A stretch of 64,000 bases of DNA from a virus. Position numbers and translations under genes: made by a program. The stretch spans positions 1-64,000 of IMG/VR virus record IMGVR_UViG_3300027792_000292; one strand, written 5' to 3'. Under the pieces are notes generated by a model, which saw only the letters and a program-made list of their open reading frames with translations, was not told the origin of the DNA and made no database searches. Of this stretch, positions 22,565 to 64,000 are shown piece after piece; within the stretch, counting starts at the first letter, position 1; each line of letters starts with the position of its first letter.

Positions 22565-25500
22565 ATGGCTAAGAATTTAGGAAATGAAGTATTTAGTGTA
22601 TATGATGGCCTTGGTTATGCCTATGATAAAGTATTTTTTCAGAAGGGTAAACCCCCTCTTTCCTCCGAACTGAATGAAGCACAGCAGCAATTGGAGCTTC
22701 TTACTCAGAAGAGTACGGCACATATGCCCTCTGGGTGGCTTAGTTACAGGCCCTTCTTCACTGATAAATCTTTAGAGAACTACTTCTATACTCAGGACCC
22801 TGAGGGTTCCAAACCTGAGGTAGCTTTGGTAAATGGATGGCCTATCTATGTAACCAATACAGGAACATCTTTGCCACACGTTAATGCTATTAATCTATCT
22901 GATTTTGAGCTTCGCTCTGGAAGTAGAGTAGATGGAGTTTTCTTAGAAGTTTGGAGATCTTTGCTTTCTCCGGGAACAAGTGAATCCAAACCTCAGAATC
23001 TTCGTAAAGTTAGTAACCTTAATACAGTTTATATGTTTAATGACCAGATTGGTTGGGCGCTTGGGGATAACGGTGTTATACTTAAAACTATAGATGGTGG
23101 TAATAATTGGGTATCAAAAGAAACTCCTGTTGCAGTAACTTTCAATAAAGTTAAATTCCATGATGCTTACTTAGGATATGCTGTTGGTAACAACGGGTAT
23201 ATAATTAAGACGGTCAATGGTGGAGAAAGTTGGACAGTGATTACTACTAACATAACTAATGTTCTTAATGACTTATATATCATAGATGATACAACAGTAT
23301 GTGTTGTAGGTGATAGCGGTACAGTTCTGCTTACTATTGATGGTACAAATTTTGAACTTATTGAGCAGACTAGTGGTATTTCTACAAACTTCAATGGTGT
23401 CTTTTTCTTTGATACAGCAGTAGGGTGGGTAGTAGGAGATACTGGCACTTTACTTATTACAAATGATGGTGGAAATTCTTGGACATCTCAAACTATAATC
23501 GATGCATCGAATAGCCTGCAGGTAATAGAGGATTTAACCTCTGTAGCATTTTTTAATCTGAATGACGGTTTAGTCATTGGTAGAAATGGCATTATATTAA
23601 AGACTACAGATGGGGGAAGATCTTGGTCAAATATGACCAATAATATATGGACGGGTACTGAGTATGCATCTCTTACGACTTTATATCCAACAAAAGAAAA
23701 TACATTATATAGTATTTTTATTCAAAAAGAATTTCCTCTTGATTTCTCTGTAACAATATATCCTAATTCAAGGAGTTTCTTCTCTTCAGCCTCCTATAAA
23801 ATATCACCAACTAACTACCCTAACGCTTTAGTCCTTGAGTGGGTAGGAGTTCAAGATAGAAGGAGCTATATAGAAGTCCTTAATTTGGATAACTATGCTA
23901 ATGCAGAAGAGCTTAGAGATGCTATCAACGCTGTTACTAGCCCTTATCTTGCCTCAGATGCTGCGCTGCCTGATGCATCGAGGCAGAAAATTAGAGTTTT
24001 CCAATCTGTTGTTGATTTTGCCCCTATCAATAAGCCTTCTGAGCTTAGACCTTCTTCTGGTGTTATTCCTAATCGAACAACTACAGATATTAGTTTTTCT
24101 ATTCAAGATAGAGCATGGGTTTGTGGGTCTAATGGATTACTTATCACTACAGAAAATAGCGGTGCTAAATGGAGAGTACTTAGCGCGGGTACGGGAGTAG
24201 ACCTATACGATTTGTTTTTTGTTAATGAGGCTTTAGGATGGGTAGTAGGATATGAGGGAACAATCATAAAATATGATCCTAATAATATAGATAATCAATA
24301 CGAAGAACAGGATTCAGATTTAGAAGTAAGGACTAAAGGAAGAATTTATCCTGAAGGTAATATACAGTCTGAAGCTACAGACTATTTAGAAGATAATATG
24401 ATAGACCCTAATGTAGGAGTAGAGACAACAAAAAGGGTTCAAATACAGTATAGAATACGAGTAGTAGATGGTATTGATCCTTTCAATTTCCCAGAAGCAG
24501 GATTAGGGGCGCAGTACGTTTATAGTATGGGTCCTAATACTGGAATAACTGATGCTGGAAGTTACACTTTCGAAAATATGGGGAGTAGTAATGGAGACTA
24601 CGGATTGTGGAGATCTCGTTGCAGAAATACTCATGATGGGTACAGCTGGGCTATTCCTATGTTCTTTGTATCAAGAAGGAATTCTTCACCATTCAATATT
24701 GAGTCTAACATAAATGGTTCTACATATTATGAATTAAATGCTATTAGACCTGACGGGCTAACATATACTGAAATTGTTAGTGATGATATAGTAGATATAC
24801 GTAGAAAGATTGTAGTAAATACTATGAGTGGTATTCTTGAGAAGAATTTAGATCTTCTTCTTCAGAATCAGCTTAAAACAAAGATAGATAATAAAGATAA
24901 CAGGGGAACTCAATTTAGTACTTCTATCCTCTCAGTAGATACTTATACTGGTATCGGAGATATAACTAATCTGGCTACTGGTGCTGTATCTTCTACGGCA
25001 GTGATACGAGATGATATCAAAACTGTGAATTCTAATATCACCCCTGTTGAGACTGAGCTAACATTTGGCCCTAGAGAAAAAGCATTGTATATCAATGAGA
25101 CGGCACTATATAGCGCCTTTATTATAAGAGACTCTGCGGTAACAAGTGAACGTGTTCAAGGAACCTGGGAAGGATTGGGAACAGATTCTGTCGTCTTTAC
25201 TCTTACTGGAAATAATCCAACAGGAGATAATATACAGTATCAGATAACTGCAACCTACCTTGATTTTTCAGGGGTTGGATTATCCAGAATACCTGTTCAG
25301 CCTTTGGGGATGAAATATATCCCAGACGACACAAATAGCTCATTGTTCTACAGAGGAATAAATGTATTTAATAACGACGAGGTTATAGAATATCTTGATG
25401 AGAGAGTATCTGGGTATAAGGACTACACTATTCTTTATTCAGCAAAGACTATACAGAATACTGTTGATATGCAGAATCTATATAAGGATATAGGAAATCT

Positions 25501-26995
25501 ACCTGAGAATGATATAGAGTTTAAGAGGTCGTTAAGGAAATTTCATGGTCAACAATTCAGAGGCTCCCTTGTTGAATACCATTACTTCTTCCAGGCAATT
25601 GAACCGACAAGTGTTATTAGAGTGCCGAAGAATCTTAGCGGATATGGGGTTTTTTCAGTCAAAAGTGTTTCAAGTATAAACGGTTCTGTATATAAGATTT
25701 CTAAAGATTTCAGGACTTGGAGTTCTTTAAGAGATAGGGAACTTACTGATTCTGGGGTCGATAAGACCTACATATTGATTTATCTCGATGAAGCTTTTGT
25801 GGTGCCCTCAAATACTATTGTGGAAGTAGTTATGGAAGTTACAACAACTTCTGACGCTACCACCGCTAATGATTTGGGTCTTCCTTTAAATCATAAGGGA
25901 GAGAACCAGCAGGCATTGAGAGCGCCTTATATGGTCAATTTTAATGTTAGCTCAAAGGGTATAGAAGGTTTTTACAAGTCTGTTCTGTTCCCTGTATTGT
26001 TGACTACTGACGATCAGAGGGAGTTTACTATTGATCTAAGGAATGCTAGCTCCGCTTTCCCGGAACTACTGAATGGTCTTATTCTTGGTATAAGCTCTTT
26101 TTCAACAAGTGAGAAGCAGTATGAGATGTTTGCTTGGTATCCTGAAATTTCTATAATACCGGATGAGACAGTATATACAGTACTTCCTATCCTTTCAATA
26201 AGTCCTACGGATGATGAACCTGATATAACAGGTATGGGAACGGTGGCGGCTAAGTTTAGAATAGATCCTAGAGTGACAACCCATTCTGGGACTATCTATG
26301 TACCATTATTAGTCAAACAGATAACTTTTGAGAATTTGACTCAAACAACTACAACTAATATCTTATATAGATATCGCCCATATCAGACTCTCAATTCATT
26401 GCCAGACAGTTTGGATGTTGAAATTATGAAATGTTCTGAGTTTTTATATATCTCTAACCTTGGAACCGGAGCAACACCGGATATTAAAGGTGAGCCATAT
26501 GAAAGTCCTATAGATAACATTCCGGTTAATGATCCAGATTTCTTGAGTGAAAATATGTTTACCAACGTGGATGATTTAGATTTTAGCAACTTCAGTATAG
26601 ATTCAGGGTTTGTAAAACTACCTGCAATAATAGGTAGAACAGTAGGGTCCTCCCTTACATTATCTCAACCTAACAATGTTGGAGATAAACTTGGGAGGGC
26701 CTACTATGCAGCTTGTAGCGAAGAGTTCAGAATACAAGCTGAGCATATGTCTGTTGCTAATCCAAGAAAAGTTTTCATTCCTATGCTTGCCAGAATAAGG
26801 TCTGATATAATTTCTCCTTTTGTAAGAGGGGAGTTAGTTCTCCTTATATTCTCAAAGGTATACAGAGCAAGAACTGAAAATCAGGTTGGATTCTTCGAGG
26901 ATGATGATATAGAGTATCAACCTGGGTATACAGAAACAGCTGAGACATCTGTAGGTATTTATAGATTACAGAATAAGCCTATAGTTAGGATGTAA
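22565..26995 (+). CDS. Tail/baseplate structural protein with inserted YCF48/BNR (Asp-box) beta-propeller
   Basis: Repeats GWxxGxxGxIxxTxDGGxxW (e.g. GWALGDNGVILKTIDGGNNW). The N-terminal and central blocks are shared with 47834..51139 (PSGWL, VNGWP, VFLEVW, ETTKRVQIQYRIR). Confidence 0.75.
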   Translation: MAKNLGNEVFSVYDGLGYAYDKVFFQKGKPPLSSELNEAQQQLELLTQKSTAHMPSGWLSYRPFFTDKSLENYFYTQDPEGSKPEVALVNGWPIYVTNTGTSLPHVNAINLSDFELRSGSRVDGVFLEVWRSLLSPGTSESKPQNLRKVSNLNTVYMFNDQIGWALGDNGVILKTIDGGNNWVSKETPVAVTFNKVKFHDAYLGYAVGNNGYIIKTVNGGESWTVITTNITNVLNDLYIIDDTTVCVVGDSGTVLLTIDGTNFELIEQTSGISTNFNGVFFFDTAVGWVVGDTGTLLITNDGGNSWTSQTIIDASNSLQVIEDLTSVAFFNLNDGLVIGRNGIILKTTDGGRSWSNMTNNIWTGTEYASLTTLYPTKENTLYSIFIQKEFPLDFSVTIYPNSRSFFSSASYKISPTNYPNALVLEWVGVQDRRSYIEVLNLDNYANAEELRDAINAVTSPYLASDAALPDASRQKIRVFQSVVDFAPINKPSELRPSSGVIPNRTTTDISFSIQDRAWVCGSNGLLITTENSGAKWRVLSAGTGVDLYDLFFVNEALGWVVGYEGTIIKYDPNNIDNQYEEQDSDLEVRTKGRIYPEGNIQSEATDYLEDNMIDPNVGVETTKRVQIQYRIRVVDGIDPFNFPEAGLGAQYVYSMGPNTGITDAGSYTFENMGSSNGDYGLWRSRCRNTHDGYSWAIPMFFVSRRNSSPFNIESNINGSTYYELNAIRPDGLTYTEIVSDDIVDIRRKIVVNTMSGILEKNLDLLLQNQLKTKIDNKDNRGTQFSTSILSVDTYTGIGDITNLATGAVSSTAVIRDDIKTVNSNITPVETELTFGPREKALYINETALYSAFIIRDSAVTSERVQGTWEGLGTDSVVFTLTGNNPTGDNIQYQITATYLDFSGVGLSRIPVQPLGMKYIPDDTNSSLFYRGINVFNNDEVIEYLDERVSGYKDYTILYSAKTIQNTVDMQNLYKDIGNLPENDIEFKRSLRKFHGQQFRGSLVEYHYFFQAIEPTSVIRVPKNLSGYGVFSVKSVSSINGSVYKISKDFRTWSSLRDRELTDSGVDKTYILIYLDEAFVVPSNTIVEVVMEVTTTSDATTANDLGLPLNHKGENQQALRAPYMVNFNVSSKGIEGFYKSVLFPVLLTTDDQREFTIDLRNASSAFPELLNGLILGISSFSTSEKQYEMFAWYPEISIIPDETVYTVLPILSISPTDDEPDITGMGTVAAKFRIDPRVTTHSGTIYVPLLVKQITFENLTQTTTTNILYRYRPYQTLNSLPDSLDVEIMKCSEFLYISNLGTGATPDIKGEPYESPIDNIPVNDPDFLSENMFTNVDDLDFSNFSIDSGFVKLPAIIGRTVGSSLTLSQPNNVGDKLGRAYYAACSEEFRIQAEHMSVANPRKVFIPMLARIRSDIISPFVRGELVLLIFSKVYRARTENQVGFFEDDDIEYQPGYTETAETSVGIYRLQNKPIVRM

Positions 26996-60430: not shown

Positions 60431-60489
60431 GTGGTGCGTAATGCATATCACTACGAAGGGGTTGGTAAAGGGACTACCAATAACCTTCG
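60429..60489 (+). promoter_or_regulatory. Structured 5' leader (two overlapping hairpins) before the MBL hydrolase RBS
   Basis: One stem is TCGTGGTG/CACTACGA (60429-36/60449-56). The other is CGAAGG..TTGGTA/TACCAA..CCTTCG (60454-67/60475-89). SD AAAGGAG follows at 60491. Confidence 0.45.
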
Positions 60490-60502
60490 CAAAGGAGTTT
60501 AT

Positions 60503-61270
60503 ATGAAGATCACATTTTTGGGTAGTGGATCAGCCTCTGGAACAGAAAACTTTCATAGCAATATTCTTATTGAGACTGAGAAGGTCAGGCTCCTATTTGA
60601 TTGTGGAGATGACTGCAGATGGGCGCTTAAAGAGAAAAAAATGTCTGTGATGGACATTGATGCTATCTATATATCCCATCTTCATGGGGATCACACTCAT
60701 GGCCTGGAAAATGTAGCTTTCTGTACCTATTTTGGAAGAGTAGTGCATGGTGGTAGGAAGGTAAAGCTTATAGCACAGGACCAACTTATGAAGGACTTAT
60801 GGGAGCATACCTTGAGTGGTGGGCTCAGGTCAATTCAGATGATAGACTGTACTCTTGATACTTTCTTTGAGCCTATGCCGATACCAAGTAATGGCTCTTT
60901 CATCTTAGACGAAAAGGGATACAAGTTTGATCTTATTCAAACTATCCATGTGATCTCTGACCGGAGTTTTGTAAAGTCTTTTGGATTGAAGTTTCGTACA
61001 GACAAGAACATGGTTTTCATTACTTCTGATACTCAGTGGGCACCACACCAACTGAGAGACTTTATGATTACTTCTGATGTTGTTTTTCAGGACTGTGAAA
61101 CATCAAAATATCCATCTGGGGTGCATGCTCACTATGAAGATCTTGTGGCATTGCCTGATGAACTCAAATCTAAAATGTGGTTATACCACTACAATGATGG
61201 TCCTCTTCCTGATGCTAAAGCAGCAGGATTCCTAGGATTTGTTACTAAAGGGCAACAGTTCGATTTATAA
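60503..61270 (+). CDS. MBL-fold metallo-hydrolase, resembling anti-Pycsar Apyc1 / RNase Z-like phosphodiesterases
   Basis: ATG at 60503 after SD AAGGAG. Motifs 'FLGSGSA', 'LLFDCG', HxHxDH (SHLHGDH), 'GGRKVKL', 'LWEHTLSGGL', 'TSDT', 'GVHA', 'HY'. Confidence 0.85.
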   Translation: MKITFLGSGSASGTENFHSNILIETEKVRLLFDCGDDCRWALKEKKMSVMDIDAIYISHLHGDHTHGLENVAFCTYFGRVVHGGRKVKLIAQDQLMKDLWEHTLSGGLRSIQMIDCTLDTFFEPMPIPSNGSFILDEKGYKFDLIQTIHVISDRSFVKSFGLKFRTDKNMVFITSDTQWAPHQLRDFMITSDVVFQDCETSKYPSGVHAHYEDLVALPDELKSKMWLYHYNDGPLPDAKAAGFLGFVTKGQQFDL

Positions 61271-61295: not shown

Positions 61296-63143
61296 ATGAA
61301 AATTCTAAAGAATGCAGGTACTTTTGAAGTACTAACTAAGCCTGAGAATGTTATAGGTGACATAGCAGCAGCAGCCCGTACCTGTTATCAGTCTCAAGAT
61401 AAAGCAAGTCCTGAGAACGATATTAAGCTAGTTAAGAATCTTATCACTCGGGGTCATACGCCCATGTTGGAATTTTCGGACATCACGGTAAGATTTAATG
61501 GGGTATCTAGGGGTTTCTGCTATGATGATGCTACGGAGGTTTTGACAGATGGGGGGTGGAAATATTTTAAAGATACGACTAATAAAGATAATTTTGCTAC
61601 AATAAATATGAGAACTTTTAAAGTGGAGTATCAAAAGAGAATAGATTATGTAGAAGAGGAATGGAATGCTCCGTTAATTTATGGTAAGTCTACACAAGTT
61701 GATTTTGCTGTTACACCTAACCATAGAATGCTCTATTTTCATTATGATTCTAGGATTGATAGAAAATGGAAAATAGATAGCGCCGATAGTATTTATAATA
61801 AGAGAGTAAAGTTTAAGCGAGCTTTTCCATCGTGGGAGGGTAAGAAGATACTTTTATCTTTGGAAAGGTTTGATATTAACTCTGTTTGGTTTGCTAAATT
61901 TATAGGGTTATATGTAACAGATGGATCTTCTTGTAAGAGCAAAGATTCTGGCGGGAGAGTAACCATAAGTCAAACAAAAGAGTCAGGAAAAAAATATATT
62001 GAGGAGGTACTAAACAACTTAGCTGTTGAGATAAAATATGATGATCATGAGTATAGAATAAATAACACAAAGCTATATCATTTTCTAAAGAAACATTTCG
62101 TTTCTGAGTCCACTAAATCTTATAATGGTAAATTCCCTAAGTGGTTGTTAGAAGCTCCTGTTAAATATCTAAGAGCTTTTATAGAAGCAGCTATAGTAGG
62201 CGATGGGAATATACATAGGGTTAATGGGCACAGGGTGATATATTCATCTAATAAGGATTATGCTGATGGGTTTCAAGAAATTTTATCTAAAATTGGTATA
62301 TCCTCTAGTATTAGAGTTGATAATAGAGTAGGGGATAAACGTTTTCTAAATGGTACTATTATAGAAAATAAAGTAGTTGGTTATATAGTCTCCATAAATG
62401 ATAAGACTGATGAGCACTTATTTAATAAGAAGCTGTGGAGTAGAAAATTATATAAAGGCAAAGTTTATTGTGTGACAGTACCTAATGGAACTCTGTATGT
62501 AAGAAGAAATGGCAAACCTATGTGGTCTGGCAACACACATGAGATGGTCCGACATCGACTAGCAAGTTATGCTCAGGAGTCTACTCGTTATGTGGATGAG
62601 AAGGACTTTGAGTTTATAGTCCCGCCACATAGAGATGAAAATGAATGTATTATTAGCCTTGATGACATAGCTAAACTTCCGTATATTCACGGGAACACAC
62701 CAAATAATAACTTTAGTTTTTATACTTGTCTTGATATCATAGGTAAGATGTATAGGAAGTTTAGAGACATAGGATGGAAGCCAGAAGACGTTAGACAGAT
62801 ACTCCCTACAGCTATTCAGGCTCAGATAGTTGTTAAAGCTAACATTGCCGAATGGCGACATATCTTTTTTCGTAGGTGTGATAAGTTTGCACATTGGGAG
62901 ATACGTGTGGTGATGATTGAACTTCTGAAGTGGTGTCAAAATAATATCCCTGTAGTGTTTGATGATTTTAAATTTTTTAAAACTAATGAAGGCTTGGAGT
63001 ACGCAACAATGGTATTGTCTTCAACACAATTAGCTGAAAAAATCATTTATTACACAGACATTTTTGATTTTAAAGATGTTGTATGTAAATTGGATGAGGC
63101 TACAAGAAATGAATTATTAAAGGCATTGAATAGCCCTGAATAG
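61296..63143 (+). CDS. thyX: Flavin-dependent thymidylate synthase ThyX (intein-containing)
   Basis: N-extein 'AARTCYQS...GHTPMLEF...GVSRGF'. C-extein 'THEMVRHRLASYAQESTRYV' (RHRx7S motif), 'RQILP', 'AHWEIR'. Confidence 0.95.
   Translation: MKILKNAGTFEVLTKPENVIGDIAAAARTCYQSQDKASPENDIKLVKNLITRGHTPMLEFSDITVRFNGVSRGFCYDDATEVLTDGGWKYFKDTTNKDNFATINMRTFKVEYQKRIDYVEEEWNAPLIYGKSTQVDFAVTPNHRMLYFHYDSRIDRKWKIDSADSIYNKRVKFKRAFPSWEGKKILLSLERFDINSVWFAKFIGLYVTDGSSCKSKDSGGRVTISQTKESGKKYIEEVLNNLAVEIKYDDHEYRINNTKLYHFLKKHFVSESTKSYNGKFPKWLLEAPVKYLRAFIEAAIVGDGNIHRVNGHRVIYSSNKDYADGFQEILSKIGISSSIRVDNRVGDKRFLNGTIIENKVVGYIVSINDKTDEHLFNKKLWSRKLYKGKVYCVTVPNGTLYVRRNGKPMWSGNTHEMVRHRLASYAQESTRYVDEKDFEFIVPPHRDENECIISLDDIAKLPYIHGNTPNNNFSFYTCLDIIGKMYRKFRDIGWKPEDVRQILPTAIQAQIVVKANIAEWRHIFFRRCDKFAHWEIRVVMIELLKWCQNNIPVVFDDFKFFKTNEGLEYATMVLSSTQLAEKIIYYTDIFDFKDVVCKLDEATRNELLKALNSPE
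61518..62534 (+). mobile_element. Intein with LAGLIDADG homing endonuclease in thyX (339 aa)
   Basis: Block A CYDDATEVLT, block B VTPNHRML, LAGLIDADG-like FIGLYVTDGS and FIEAAIVGDGN, block F VYCVTVPNG. Ends 'WSGN' followed by the +1 Thr. Removing it restores 'VSRGF-THEMVRHR'. Confidence 0.93.
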
Positions 63144-63148
63144 TCACT

Positions 63149-63250
63149 AAATGAGACGGCTGGGGATGAAACATCAGCGTAGTTGTGCAGTACCCCACCG
63201 TAAAAAAGGTACAGAGGTAGGCGCACCTCTTTCCCCAGCTAGTCTCATTT
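63149..63250 (+). ncRNA. Candidate structured non-coding RNA (unclassified; strand uncertain)
   Basis: 18-bp terminal helix: AAATGAGAC/GTCTCATTT, one bulged A, then GGCTGGGGA/TCCCCAGCT. It encloses hairpins GTACC/GGTAC and AGAGGT/ACCTCT. Markedly more GC-rich than its flanks. Confidence 0.55.
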
Positions 63251-63269
63251 CTTACACATAGGAGATAAC

Positions 63270-64000
63270 ATGCTAACTGATTTAGATGAGATATTGATGG
63301 ATGAATCCGTCGTTGAGAAAAAACAAGAAGAAGAACCAATTACACCAGTTACTCCCTCAGGCACAATAGAGCCCGATGATGAGGCTATTAAATTAGCTGT
63401 AAGATTGGAAGGTTGGAATAAATCATGTAGAGACTTATTCCTTGATCTTAGAGCTATTAATTTTGAAGCTACAGATGAGGATATGAAGCTGGAGTTTAAA
63501 GACAAAAATTTTTATGATAAGCCTATATATTTTAAAATGGACCCAGATGATAACAAATCAGATAAGATTACACTCTCAAGAAAACAGCTATGCAAATTAA
63601 TTGGCATCCCTTATAACTTCTTCATGAGTAATAGACCTACCATGAGGGTTGATATATTTAAGGCATGGCAAGCTAGCTTAGGGGCAGAGGATAACAAAGG
63701 TAAATGCTTATCTAGAATTAGAGAATCAAAAGAGTGCTGTATAATACGTGCTCTAGTTCCTGATACGTACTCCCCTATTCAGAATCATGAGATAATCAAG
63801 TTGGTGAATGAGACTATAAATGTTCCATATAAACTAGAAATGGTATCAGGGGATGAACGAGATGACCTTGTTATGCACGCACGATTTATATTTGGAGATA
63901 CCTTTGAGGTTATCGGTCAAAAGGTATGCCTGGGCTTTGCTATTACTGCCTCAGAGTTTGGGGAGAGTCCTTTAATTGTAGATTCTTTTCTATATCATAT
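63270..64000 (+). CDS. DUF932-like hypothetical protein, 3'-truncated by window end
   Basis: Not in the ORF track. SD AGGAG, ATG at 63270, open to the window end (MLTDLDEILM...QLCKLIGIPYNFF...IRALVPDTYSPIQNHEII...ASEFGESPLIV). The motifs resemble DUF932 phage proteins. Confidence 0.7.
   Translation, partial: MLTDLDEILMDESVVEKKQEEEPITPVTPSGTIEPDDEAIKLAVRLEGWNKSCRDLFLDLRAINFEATDEDMKLEFKDKNFYDKPIYFKMDPDDNKSDKITLSRKQLCKLIGIPYNFFMSNRPTMRVDIFKAWQASLGAEDNKGKCLSRIRESKECCIIRALVPDTYSPIQNHEIIKLVNETINVPYKLEMVSGDERDDLVMHARFIFGDTFEVIGQKVCLGFAITASEFGESPLIVDSFLYH

Follow-up and report, generated by a model that had tools for sequence, protein, structure and literature searches.

We report a structured element of ~100 nt in the intergenic gap between thyX and a DUF932-like gene of a virus, IMG/VR virus record IMGVR_UViG_3300027792_000292. 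The record is 131,126 bases long, and its first 64 kb (positions 1 to 64,000) is the stretch of DNA that was analysed, referred to below as the window. The element occupies positions 63149–63250, and we are confident, short of certainty, that it is a real, selected, structured nucleic-acid element. Its conserved core (63151–63248) is described here as a structured RNA domain on the + strand, the strand being weakly favoured. The source of the record is an uncultivated phage, by inference a very large one; its completeness is rated at 24%, its G+C content is 36.5%, and 106 of its 113 open reading frames (ORFs; crude ORF call) lie on the + strand. Both flanking genes are on this strand and are separated by 126 nt, counted from the thyX stop codon (63141–63143) to the next ATG (63270). 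The Shine-Dalgarno sequence (SD) AGGAG of the downstream gene is found at 63260–63264. The original prediction, which was made from the letters of the DNA, had placed the element between these two genes, and this placement held, with a Pfam Thy1 match upstream and a DUF932-type predicted fold downstream.

The core folds as a four-way junction, in which a 16-bp helix of both ends with one bulged A closes hairpins of 4, 5, and 6 bp (P1 and H2 to H4 in Table 1). Positions 63149–63157 (AAATGAGAC) pair with 63242–63250 (GTCTCATTT), and 63158–63166 (GGCTGGGGA) pair with 63232–63240 (TCCCCAGCT), where G63158-T63240 is the single G-U pair. The closing helix P1 has 18 pairs in the window, 16 of which are conserved, and is interrupted by one bulged A. 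The H3 stem is formed by GTACC (63190–63194) and GGTAC (63208–63212), and the H4 stem by AGAGGT (63213–63218) and ACCTCT (63225–63230). These stems (both 9-bp helices, the bulged A63241, the G-U pair, and the two inner stems) had been predicted at exactly these coordinates, and all of them match the sequence. Two details had to be revised after comparison with the related locus L009. The outer 9-bp helix is not conserved as a unit, the two outermost pairs (63149–63150 with 63249–63250) being specific to the window. Two weak hairpins had also been proposed: GCGT/GTGC is paired in both phages and was retained, whereas GATG/CATC was discarded, as it competes and overlaps with the closing stem and is unpaired in the minimum free energy (MFE) structure of L009, where the changes at 63168 and 63172 break its inner pair.

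Folded as RNA, the 102 nt of 63149–63250 gave an MFE of −41.0 kcal/mol. Shuffled sequences had a mean of −24.6 (sd 3.8), which corresponds to a z-score of −4.27, and 0 of 200 shuffles were as good. The element is clearly below its shuffles, as the original prediction required. The entire 126-nt gap had an MFE of −42.2 (z −3.93; 1 of 200 shuffles as good), the minus strand of the element −43.3 (z −5.26), and the element folded as single-stranded DNA (ssDNA) −22.2 (z −5.20). Only 4 of 7,708 overlapping 102-nt segments of the 131-kb record reached −41; all four belong to one hairpin locus at 78014–78065, to which the element ranks second in stability. Once GC had been regressed out, 13 segments had a residual as low as that of the element. 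With a G+C of 0.48 the gap ranks highest among 39 gaps of at least 60 nt, and it is 5th of the 39 by z.

We collected 18 homologs of the downstream protein and their genomic loci, 7 from IMG/VR and 25 from JGI metagenomes. When these 32 loci, anchored on the DUF932-like gene, were searched with the covariance model R1, only L009 and L010 were found to carry the element. The two share 99.8% identity where they overlap (5.6 kb), and the DUF932-like protein of the window is 90% identical to theirs. Their 119-nt gap is the element; locus L028 has a gap of 191 nt. Conservation in relatives, by which the original prediction proposed to be judged, was thus found in part: the element is nearly unchanged in L009 and L010, but only that one lineage carries it.

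Folded alone, L009 adopts this four-way junction as well (a 16-bp P1 with the bulged A, then H2, H3, and H4), at −43.1 kcal/mol with a z-score of −5.89, and this MFE structure makes up 30% of the ensemble. All 31 core pairs (31/31) are standard in both sequences. The pair changes in L009 consist of one compensatory change (G63155-C63244 to A-U) and two G-U/G-C exchanges (63158-63240 and 63180-63185). If partner columns were slid by 1–3 positions, pairing fell to 37–52%. In a simulation with 8 random substitutions (75% transitions), no pair was broken in 3.0% of the cases, or in 1.5% if at least 4 of the substitutions were in paired positions. The three G-U pairs of the window exist on the + strand only and become A-C mismatches on the minus strand, and the additional pairs of the minus-strand fold do not recur in L009. 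For these two reasons the + strand is favoured, though weakly.

The substitution pattern was compared between the element and the neighbouring gene. The window and L009 are 80.2% identical over 63151–65343. Differences in the DUF932-like gene are distributed over the three codon positions as 32, 19, and 153, each of 375, so that near-neutral third positions have diverged by ~41% vs. ~8% in the element. In the element, 8 of 99 positions differ, which in the phase of an ORF that spans it (see below) are 2, 1, and 5, each of 33. Its third-phase positions (5/33) differ from those of the neighbour gene (153/375) with a binomial P of 0.0015 and a Fisher P of 0.0045. In the 3′ spacer after the stem, 6 of 19 positions differ. 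The longest run identical between the window and L009 is 44 nt (63196–63239) and lies in the element; the next longest is 33 nt. The over-conserved third phase, the diverged 3′ spacer, and the location of the longest identical run in the element point to constraint at the nucleotide level. Purifying selection therefore acts at the level of the nucleotides, irrespective of any translation of the stretch.

As to its role, we tentatively propose, at somewhat less than an even chance, that the element acts in cis on the transcript running from thyX to the DUF932-like gene, as a module for processing or stability or as a leader. On the + strand, the element has no sigma-70-like promoter of its own, and no intrinsic terminator was detected within or behind it; since neither brackets it, a cis element on the operon transcript is the simplest reading. 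H4 followed by GTACCTTTTT has a marginal terminator-like score on the minus strand in both phages, at a place where no minus-strand gene ends. By operon transcription of the probable strand, the element would be carried on the message from thyX into the DUF932-like gene. An RNase III site requires about two turns of near-continuous double-stranded RNA. The long closing helix may be the entry site for an RNase III-type double-strand-specific endonuclease, or it may be a barrier to exonucleases. By either route, the upstream thyX and downstream DUF932-like messages would be separated and stabilised, and a processing or protective structure would sit between an often-exchanged cassette and the DUF932-like gene. 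The sequence-invariant 3′ half (H3 loop, H4, and the 3′ strand of P1b) may point to a sequence-specific partner.

Contigs of four sequencing runs were compared with the window. They are identical to it except for one, which differs in the downstream gene, and there were no population variants among them. The DNA contigs of runs X2 and X3 do not cover the element, and those of X5 cover only 63188–63338. In the RNA-library run, one 151-nt contig (63051–63201) bridges the thyX stop codon and the first 51 nt of the element. We regard this contig as weak support, because DNA can be present in such libraries.

Several observations weigh against a selected RNA module acting in cis. Covariation is weak, because there are two distinct sequences only; with these two, a pair-shuffle control was uninformative (258/500). 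Folding energy alone is no proof, because a hairpin of similar z-score is found at 26641–26705 inside a coding ORF of 1476 codons (22565–26995); the 131-nt stretch around it (26620–26750) has an MFE of −45.4 and a z-score of −4.54. The structure leaves the SD of the next gene free. In 26 of 29 loci with an intact gene start, the preceding open frame (at least 50 codons) ends within 34 nt of that start; since these related loci are without such an element, the DUF932-like gene does not need it. RNase III (PF14622) was not found in the 131-kb record. This absence, like that of TROVE mentioned below, says little, because the record is only 24% complete. Furthermore, a recombination junction coincides exactly with the 5′ edge of the element. 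Nucleotide homology between the window and L009 ends at the end of the MBL-fold gene upstream of thyX (61269) and resumes exactly at 63151; the thyX in the L009 slot is only ~34% identical in protein to that of the window and has no nucleotide homology to it. Part of the low divergence of the element could reflect exchange and not selection. Finally, the gap is taken up in both phages by an ORF with an ATG start (36 codons in the window, 38 in L009; 81% identical), which the original prediction had missed.

This ORF suggests that the gap is a small protein gene of 36–38 codons (63151–63261), translationally coupled to thyX and the DUF932-like gene, with a fold that is incidental or tunes the coupling. 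In the window it opens 7 nt past the thyX stop codon and closes with a TAG overlapping the next SD; the L009 version begins 1 nt past the upstream stop codon and ends 1 nt before the next ATG. An ATG ORF of at least 36 codons occurred in only 4.4% of gap shuffles, and the L009 homology begins exactly at the ATG. Five of the 8 substitutions are in third positions and 4 of 8 are synonymous, but by binomial tests on the substitution counts neither the third-position excess (P ~0.09) nor the synonymous share (P ~0.25) is pronounced. The codon-usage log-odds of the ORF, −5.63, is at the 1.1 percentile of true in-frame 36-codon segments (likelihood ratio 0.055), a score typical of open off-frames, 42.7% of which score as high. 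The third positions are too conserved for coding constraint alone (5/33 vs. 153/375). A 1-nt indel puts the last codons out of frame, and conservation extends as far as the stem, not to the ORF stop. No SD precedes the ATG in the window, where the ATG is buried in P1a. No homolog of the small protein was found among 1.84 billion representatives, the two matches being long repetitive proteins. A small protein gene is therefore rather unlikely in our view. We give translation of the gap ORF about one chance in six, and it would not remove the nucleotide-level constraint. An ORF on the minus strand starting from 63226 was also considered as a gene and rejected: all 4 substitutions in its element-encoded part change the residue.

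The junction at 63151 also bears on whether the structure has any function. It could be a chance structure without function, its low divergence being that of a recent recombination tract: only two lineages (the window phage and L009/L010) carry it, the recombination junction abuts it, and similar z-scores occur in coding DNA. However, near-neutral sites have diverged by ~41% and the element by 8%, conservation on the 3′ side reaches no further than the stem, and every substitution in paired positions keeps pairing. We consider chance to be highly improbable.

Alternatively, the same junction could mark an element that works as DNA at the right-hand border of a variable gene slot, where it would bind a protein, be a site of recombination, or form a hairpin signal as a single strand. 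The element folds as ssDNA with a z-score of −5.20, it lies exactly at the junction of the thyX exchange between lineages, and the slot between the MBL-fold and DUF932-like genes varies among relatives. STAXI-type motifs near DNA-handling genes of mobile elements are discussed as possible ssDNA structures in PMC2864571. Nevertheless, the element occurs as a single copy in 131 kb, there are no promoter hexamers in its stems, and the G-U to G-C changes fit + strand RNA pairing better. Extensive ssDNA is not expected at this place in a large dsDNA phage. This explanation is very unlikely. An Frpo-like single-strand promoter was a separate candidate and was rejected, as the stems contain neither −35 nor −10 hexamers.

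Known RNA families were searched with several tools. ARAGORN detected 0 tRNA or tmRNA genes in the window and only 2 tRNAs in the whole record (77350–77880), and the Rfam tRNA model RF00005 gave nothing at E ≤ 10 in 62900–63500. A tRNA mimic, one of the identities first suggested, found no backing in either search. At gathering score the Rfam library gave 0 matches in the window and only 3 tRNA matches in the rest of the record; the latter lie at ~77.3–77.9 kb. At E ≤ 10, the 62900–63500 region gave 12 weak matches, none meaningfully over the core, and there was no tRNA, Y-RNA, riboswitch, ribozyme, radC, STAXI, or traJ-II match on the element. A weak snoZ185 match on the minus strand (63230–63320; 15.3 bits vs. 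a gathering score of 50) touches its 3′ end. On these searches the element falls outside the known Rfam families, in agreement with the novelty first claimed for it. The absence of a T-loop and of CCA had also been noted correctly: the loops AGTT, CCACCGTAAAAAA, and AGGCGC (4, 13, and 6 nt) are neither T nor D loops. YrlA is described in PMC4201824 with the motif GNCGAAN0-1G near its 5′ end. This motif is not found in the element, and even the string CGAA is absent from 63149–63250. The neighbours of the element are thyX and the DUF932-like gene and not a Ro60 gene, Pfam TROVE (PF05731) was not found in the record, and T and D loops and an Rfam Y-RNA match are likewise missing, so that the suggested Y-RNA/YrlA-like identity is not supported. 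Literature searches for DUF932 together with a leading region found nothing, and those for DUF932 together with phage found nothing on an upstream RNA; this RNA was not otherwise searched for.

A stand-alone or processed small RNA acting in trans, either as a protein decoy or as a motif-divergent client of a phage Y-RNA/Ro-like system, was weighed against these results. Ends paired in a long bulged helix round a compact multi-hairpin domain would suit a stable RNA, the invariant 44-nt half suggests sequence-specific recognition, and an Apyc1-like counter-defence gene lies 1.9 kb upstream. The same record has a scaffolded array of tRNA-like RNAs at ~77.2–78.7 kb. Loose promoter-like matches precede the element by 87 nt in the window (63064) and by 52 nt in L009 (2242), both within the non-homologous thyX tails; the L009 pattern was loosened post hoc, after inspection of the sequence. 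On the other side, there is no promoter at the 5′ end of the stem and no + strand terminator, and the YrlA motif and T/D loops are lacking. The array motif GATGCRTACATT does not occur in the element; with 2 mismatches it has 7 matches in the window, all of them elsewhere and at the level of chance (9.6 expected). Searches of the 131-kb record with R1 and at the DNA level recovered the element itself only and no array unit. The element is no more complementary to the rest of the + strand of the record than chance predicts (9 ten-mers vs. 11.6 expected), and a candidate Ro60-like gene is ~16 kb away and was not confirmed by Pfam. Action in trans thus appears unlikely. More specifically, the element might be cut out as a stable, tRNA-shaped, codon-blind RNA of ~100 nt that sequesters a host or phage protein through its 44-nt half, as a counter-defence decoy near the Apyc1-like gene or as a Ro/Y-like client; we hold this to be quite improbable.

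The array itself, at 77.2–78.8 kb of the record and ~14 kb from the element, consists of structured RNAs with tRNA-like inserts and includes the 2 ARAGORN tRNAs and the 3 Rfam tRNA matches. Promoter-like sequences TTGATC-N17-GGTATATTA are found at 77256, 77471, and 77923, and also at 71356. The array region holds the most stable hairpin of the record (78014–78140), and a 532-aa ORF after the array has no Pfam match. At the end of the record, 125785–131126, there are stretches of up to 981 nt free of ORFs (of at least 60 codons) with 40–45% G+C; 125825–125934 folds strongly (z −6.4), and the last 5 kb are without an Rfam match at gathering score.

Searches beyond the DUF932-anchored loci returned no further copy. 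With R1, the 9 loci anchored on the window-type thyX yielded no match below E 0.4, the MBL-anchored loci (3 found, 2 searched) none below E 0.3, and whole related viral records none at all (0/5). A blastn search of 62900–63600 against 50,697 phage records gave no match, and exact or IUPAC pattern scans of viral contigs and genome contigs gave 0 matches. The DUF932-like family has no relative among the genome contigs. At locus L002, a 99-nt gap after the MBL-fold gene does not fold (z +1.48).

The coordinates of the element, its parts, and the flanking genes are listed in Table 1. In thyX, the LAGLIDADG_3 match covers residues 291–351. In the L009/L010 lineage the same slot holds a different thyX-like gene without an intein, with recombination junctions at 61269/61270 and 63150/63151. 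This gene is split into two overlapping ORFs of 81 and 140 aa in L009 (1695–2292) and is a single frame of 224 codons in L010 (42–713); the L009/L010 alignment is gap-free only from L009 position 1930 on. Upstream, the MBL-fold gene at 60431–61270 (probable start 60503) matches Pfam Anti-Pycsar_Apyc1 with an E-value of 4.4e-24 (85.7 bits vs. a cut-off of 50). The gene order p205, p63, MBL is the same in several related phage contigs, and the longer order p205, p63, MBL, variable slot, DUF932-like gene also recurs in several relatives.

The 375-aa protein encoded downstream had no Pfam, NCBIfam, or PHROG match, and 0 of 19 members of its family matched Pfam DUF932 (PF06067) at E ≤ 1. Its AlphaFold (AF2) model has a pLDDT of 83.1. 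A BFVD search with this model gave 33 matches at E ≤ 0.001, and entries named DUF932 were matched at E-values of 4.0e-14 (TM 0.68/0.74), 6.6e-14, and 3.6e-12. Because the model matches DUF932-annotated phage proteins in BFVD, the gene is DUF932-like by predicted fold, and the label first given to it is correct in that sense and not by hidden Markov model. Comparison of the model with the PDB (Foldseek) and a wide VIA-align search gave no convincing match (best Z 6.6); weak OB-fold rows at Z ~5–6 are under the tool's own noise guide.

Table 1. Positions of the element, its structural parts, and the neighbouring genes (window numbering).
Feature	Coordinates	Strand	Remarks
thyX with LAGLIDADG intein	61296..63143	+	615 aa; Pfam Thy1 3.6e-37 in two stretches, LAGLIDADG_3 9.3e-12
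Conserved core, four-way junction	63151..63248	+	92.9% identity over 98 nt to L009/L010; single copy in 131-kb record
P1a 5′ strand ATGAGAC	63151..63157	+	Pairs with 63242–63248; G63155-C63244 is A-U in L009, compensatory
P1b 5′ strand GGCTGGGGA	63158..63166	+	Pairs with 63232–63240; G63158-U63240 is G-C in L009
Junction strand, site of weak GATG/CATC hairpin	63167..63176	+	2/10 positions differ in L009 (63168, 63172)
H2, 4-bp GCGT/GTGC, loop AGTT	63177..63188	+	U63180-G63185 is C-G in L009
H3, 5-bp GTACC/GGTAC, 13-nt A-rich loop	63190..63212	+	One loop change (63195) in L009
H4, 6-bp AGAGGT/ACCTCT, loop AGGCGC	63213..63230	+	Invariant between both phages
Stretch identical to L009, 44 nt	63196..63239	+	Longest identical run in ~3.2 kb of aligned DNA
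Bulged A between P1b and P1a	63241	+	Same in window phage and L009
36-codon ORF (P0019) and stop TAG	63151..63261	+	Stop overlaps SD of next gene; rival reading
Poorly conserved spacer with SD AGGAG (63260–63264)	63251..63269	+	6/19 positions differ from L009, including a 1-nt indel
DUF932-like gene	63270..64000 in window, to 64397 of record	+	375 aa; fold match

The element probably represents a new small RNA family, with two sequences so far, of a known kind. Very large phages increasingly prove to have a small-RNA biology of their own, of which the array in this record is an instance. A further RNA domain in the same genome, unrelated to the array and strongly selected, would be one more handle on how such phages organise or protect long messages. 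The handle becomes usable only with a host or an expression system; for now the element is a well-supported single-lineage candidate and not a mechanism. In practice it offers a well-delimited target of ~100 nt on which RNase III cleavage, structure probing, and protein pull-down could be tried.

Among known systems, the processing hairpins cut by RNase III in early and late mRNAs of phage T7 are single hairpins of ~50–60 nt with an internal loop, found between many genes. Like them, the element is intercistronic on a polycistronic phage message, has a long imperfect bulged helix, and is without a promoter or terminator of its own; by analogy, its bulged helix could be cut to leave protective hairpin ends. 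Unlike them, it is a four-way junction with sequence-invariant inner hairpins and loops, it occurs once, and its cleavage is putative. A tRNA also has a four-way junction, and the element resembles it in having a 5-bp stem in the position of the anticodon arm and a hairpin beside the closing helix; it differs in its 16-bp closing helix, in loops of 4, 13, and 6 nt, and in the absence of a T-loop, D-loop, or CCA. With the YrlA-type bacterial and phage Y RNAs (Chen et al. 2014, PMC4201824), the element shares ends paired in a long helix, a multi-hairpin domain closed by that helix, and a cloverleaf branch topology, and the same record has an array with tRNA-like inserts ~14 kb from the element. 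It lacks their GNCGAAN0-1G motif, T/D loops, and adjacent Ro60 gene, and any Rfam match to them at E ≤ 10. The radC (RF01754), STAXI (RF01728), and traJ-II (RF01760) motifs (Weinberg et al. 2010, PMC2864571) are likewise structures of ~100 nt directly upstream of phage- or conjugative-type genes; unlike these, the element has no covariance-model match and no tandem pseudoknot repeats, and its ribosome-binding site is exposed. By analogy, the element would work most like the intercistronic processing and stability hairpins of phages and the structured leaders of mobile elements.

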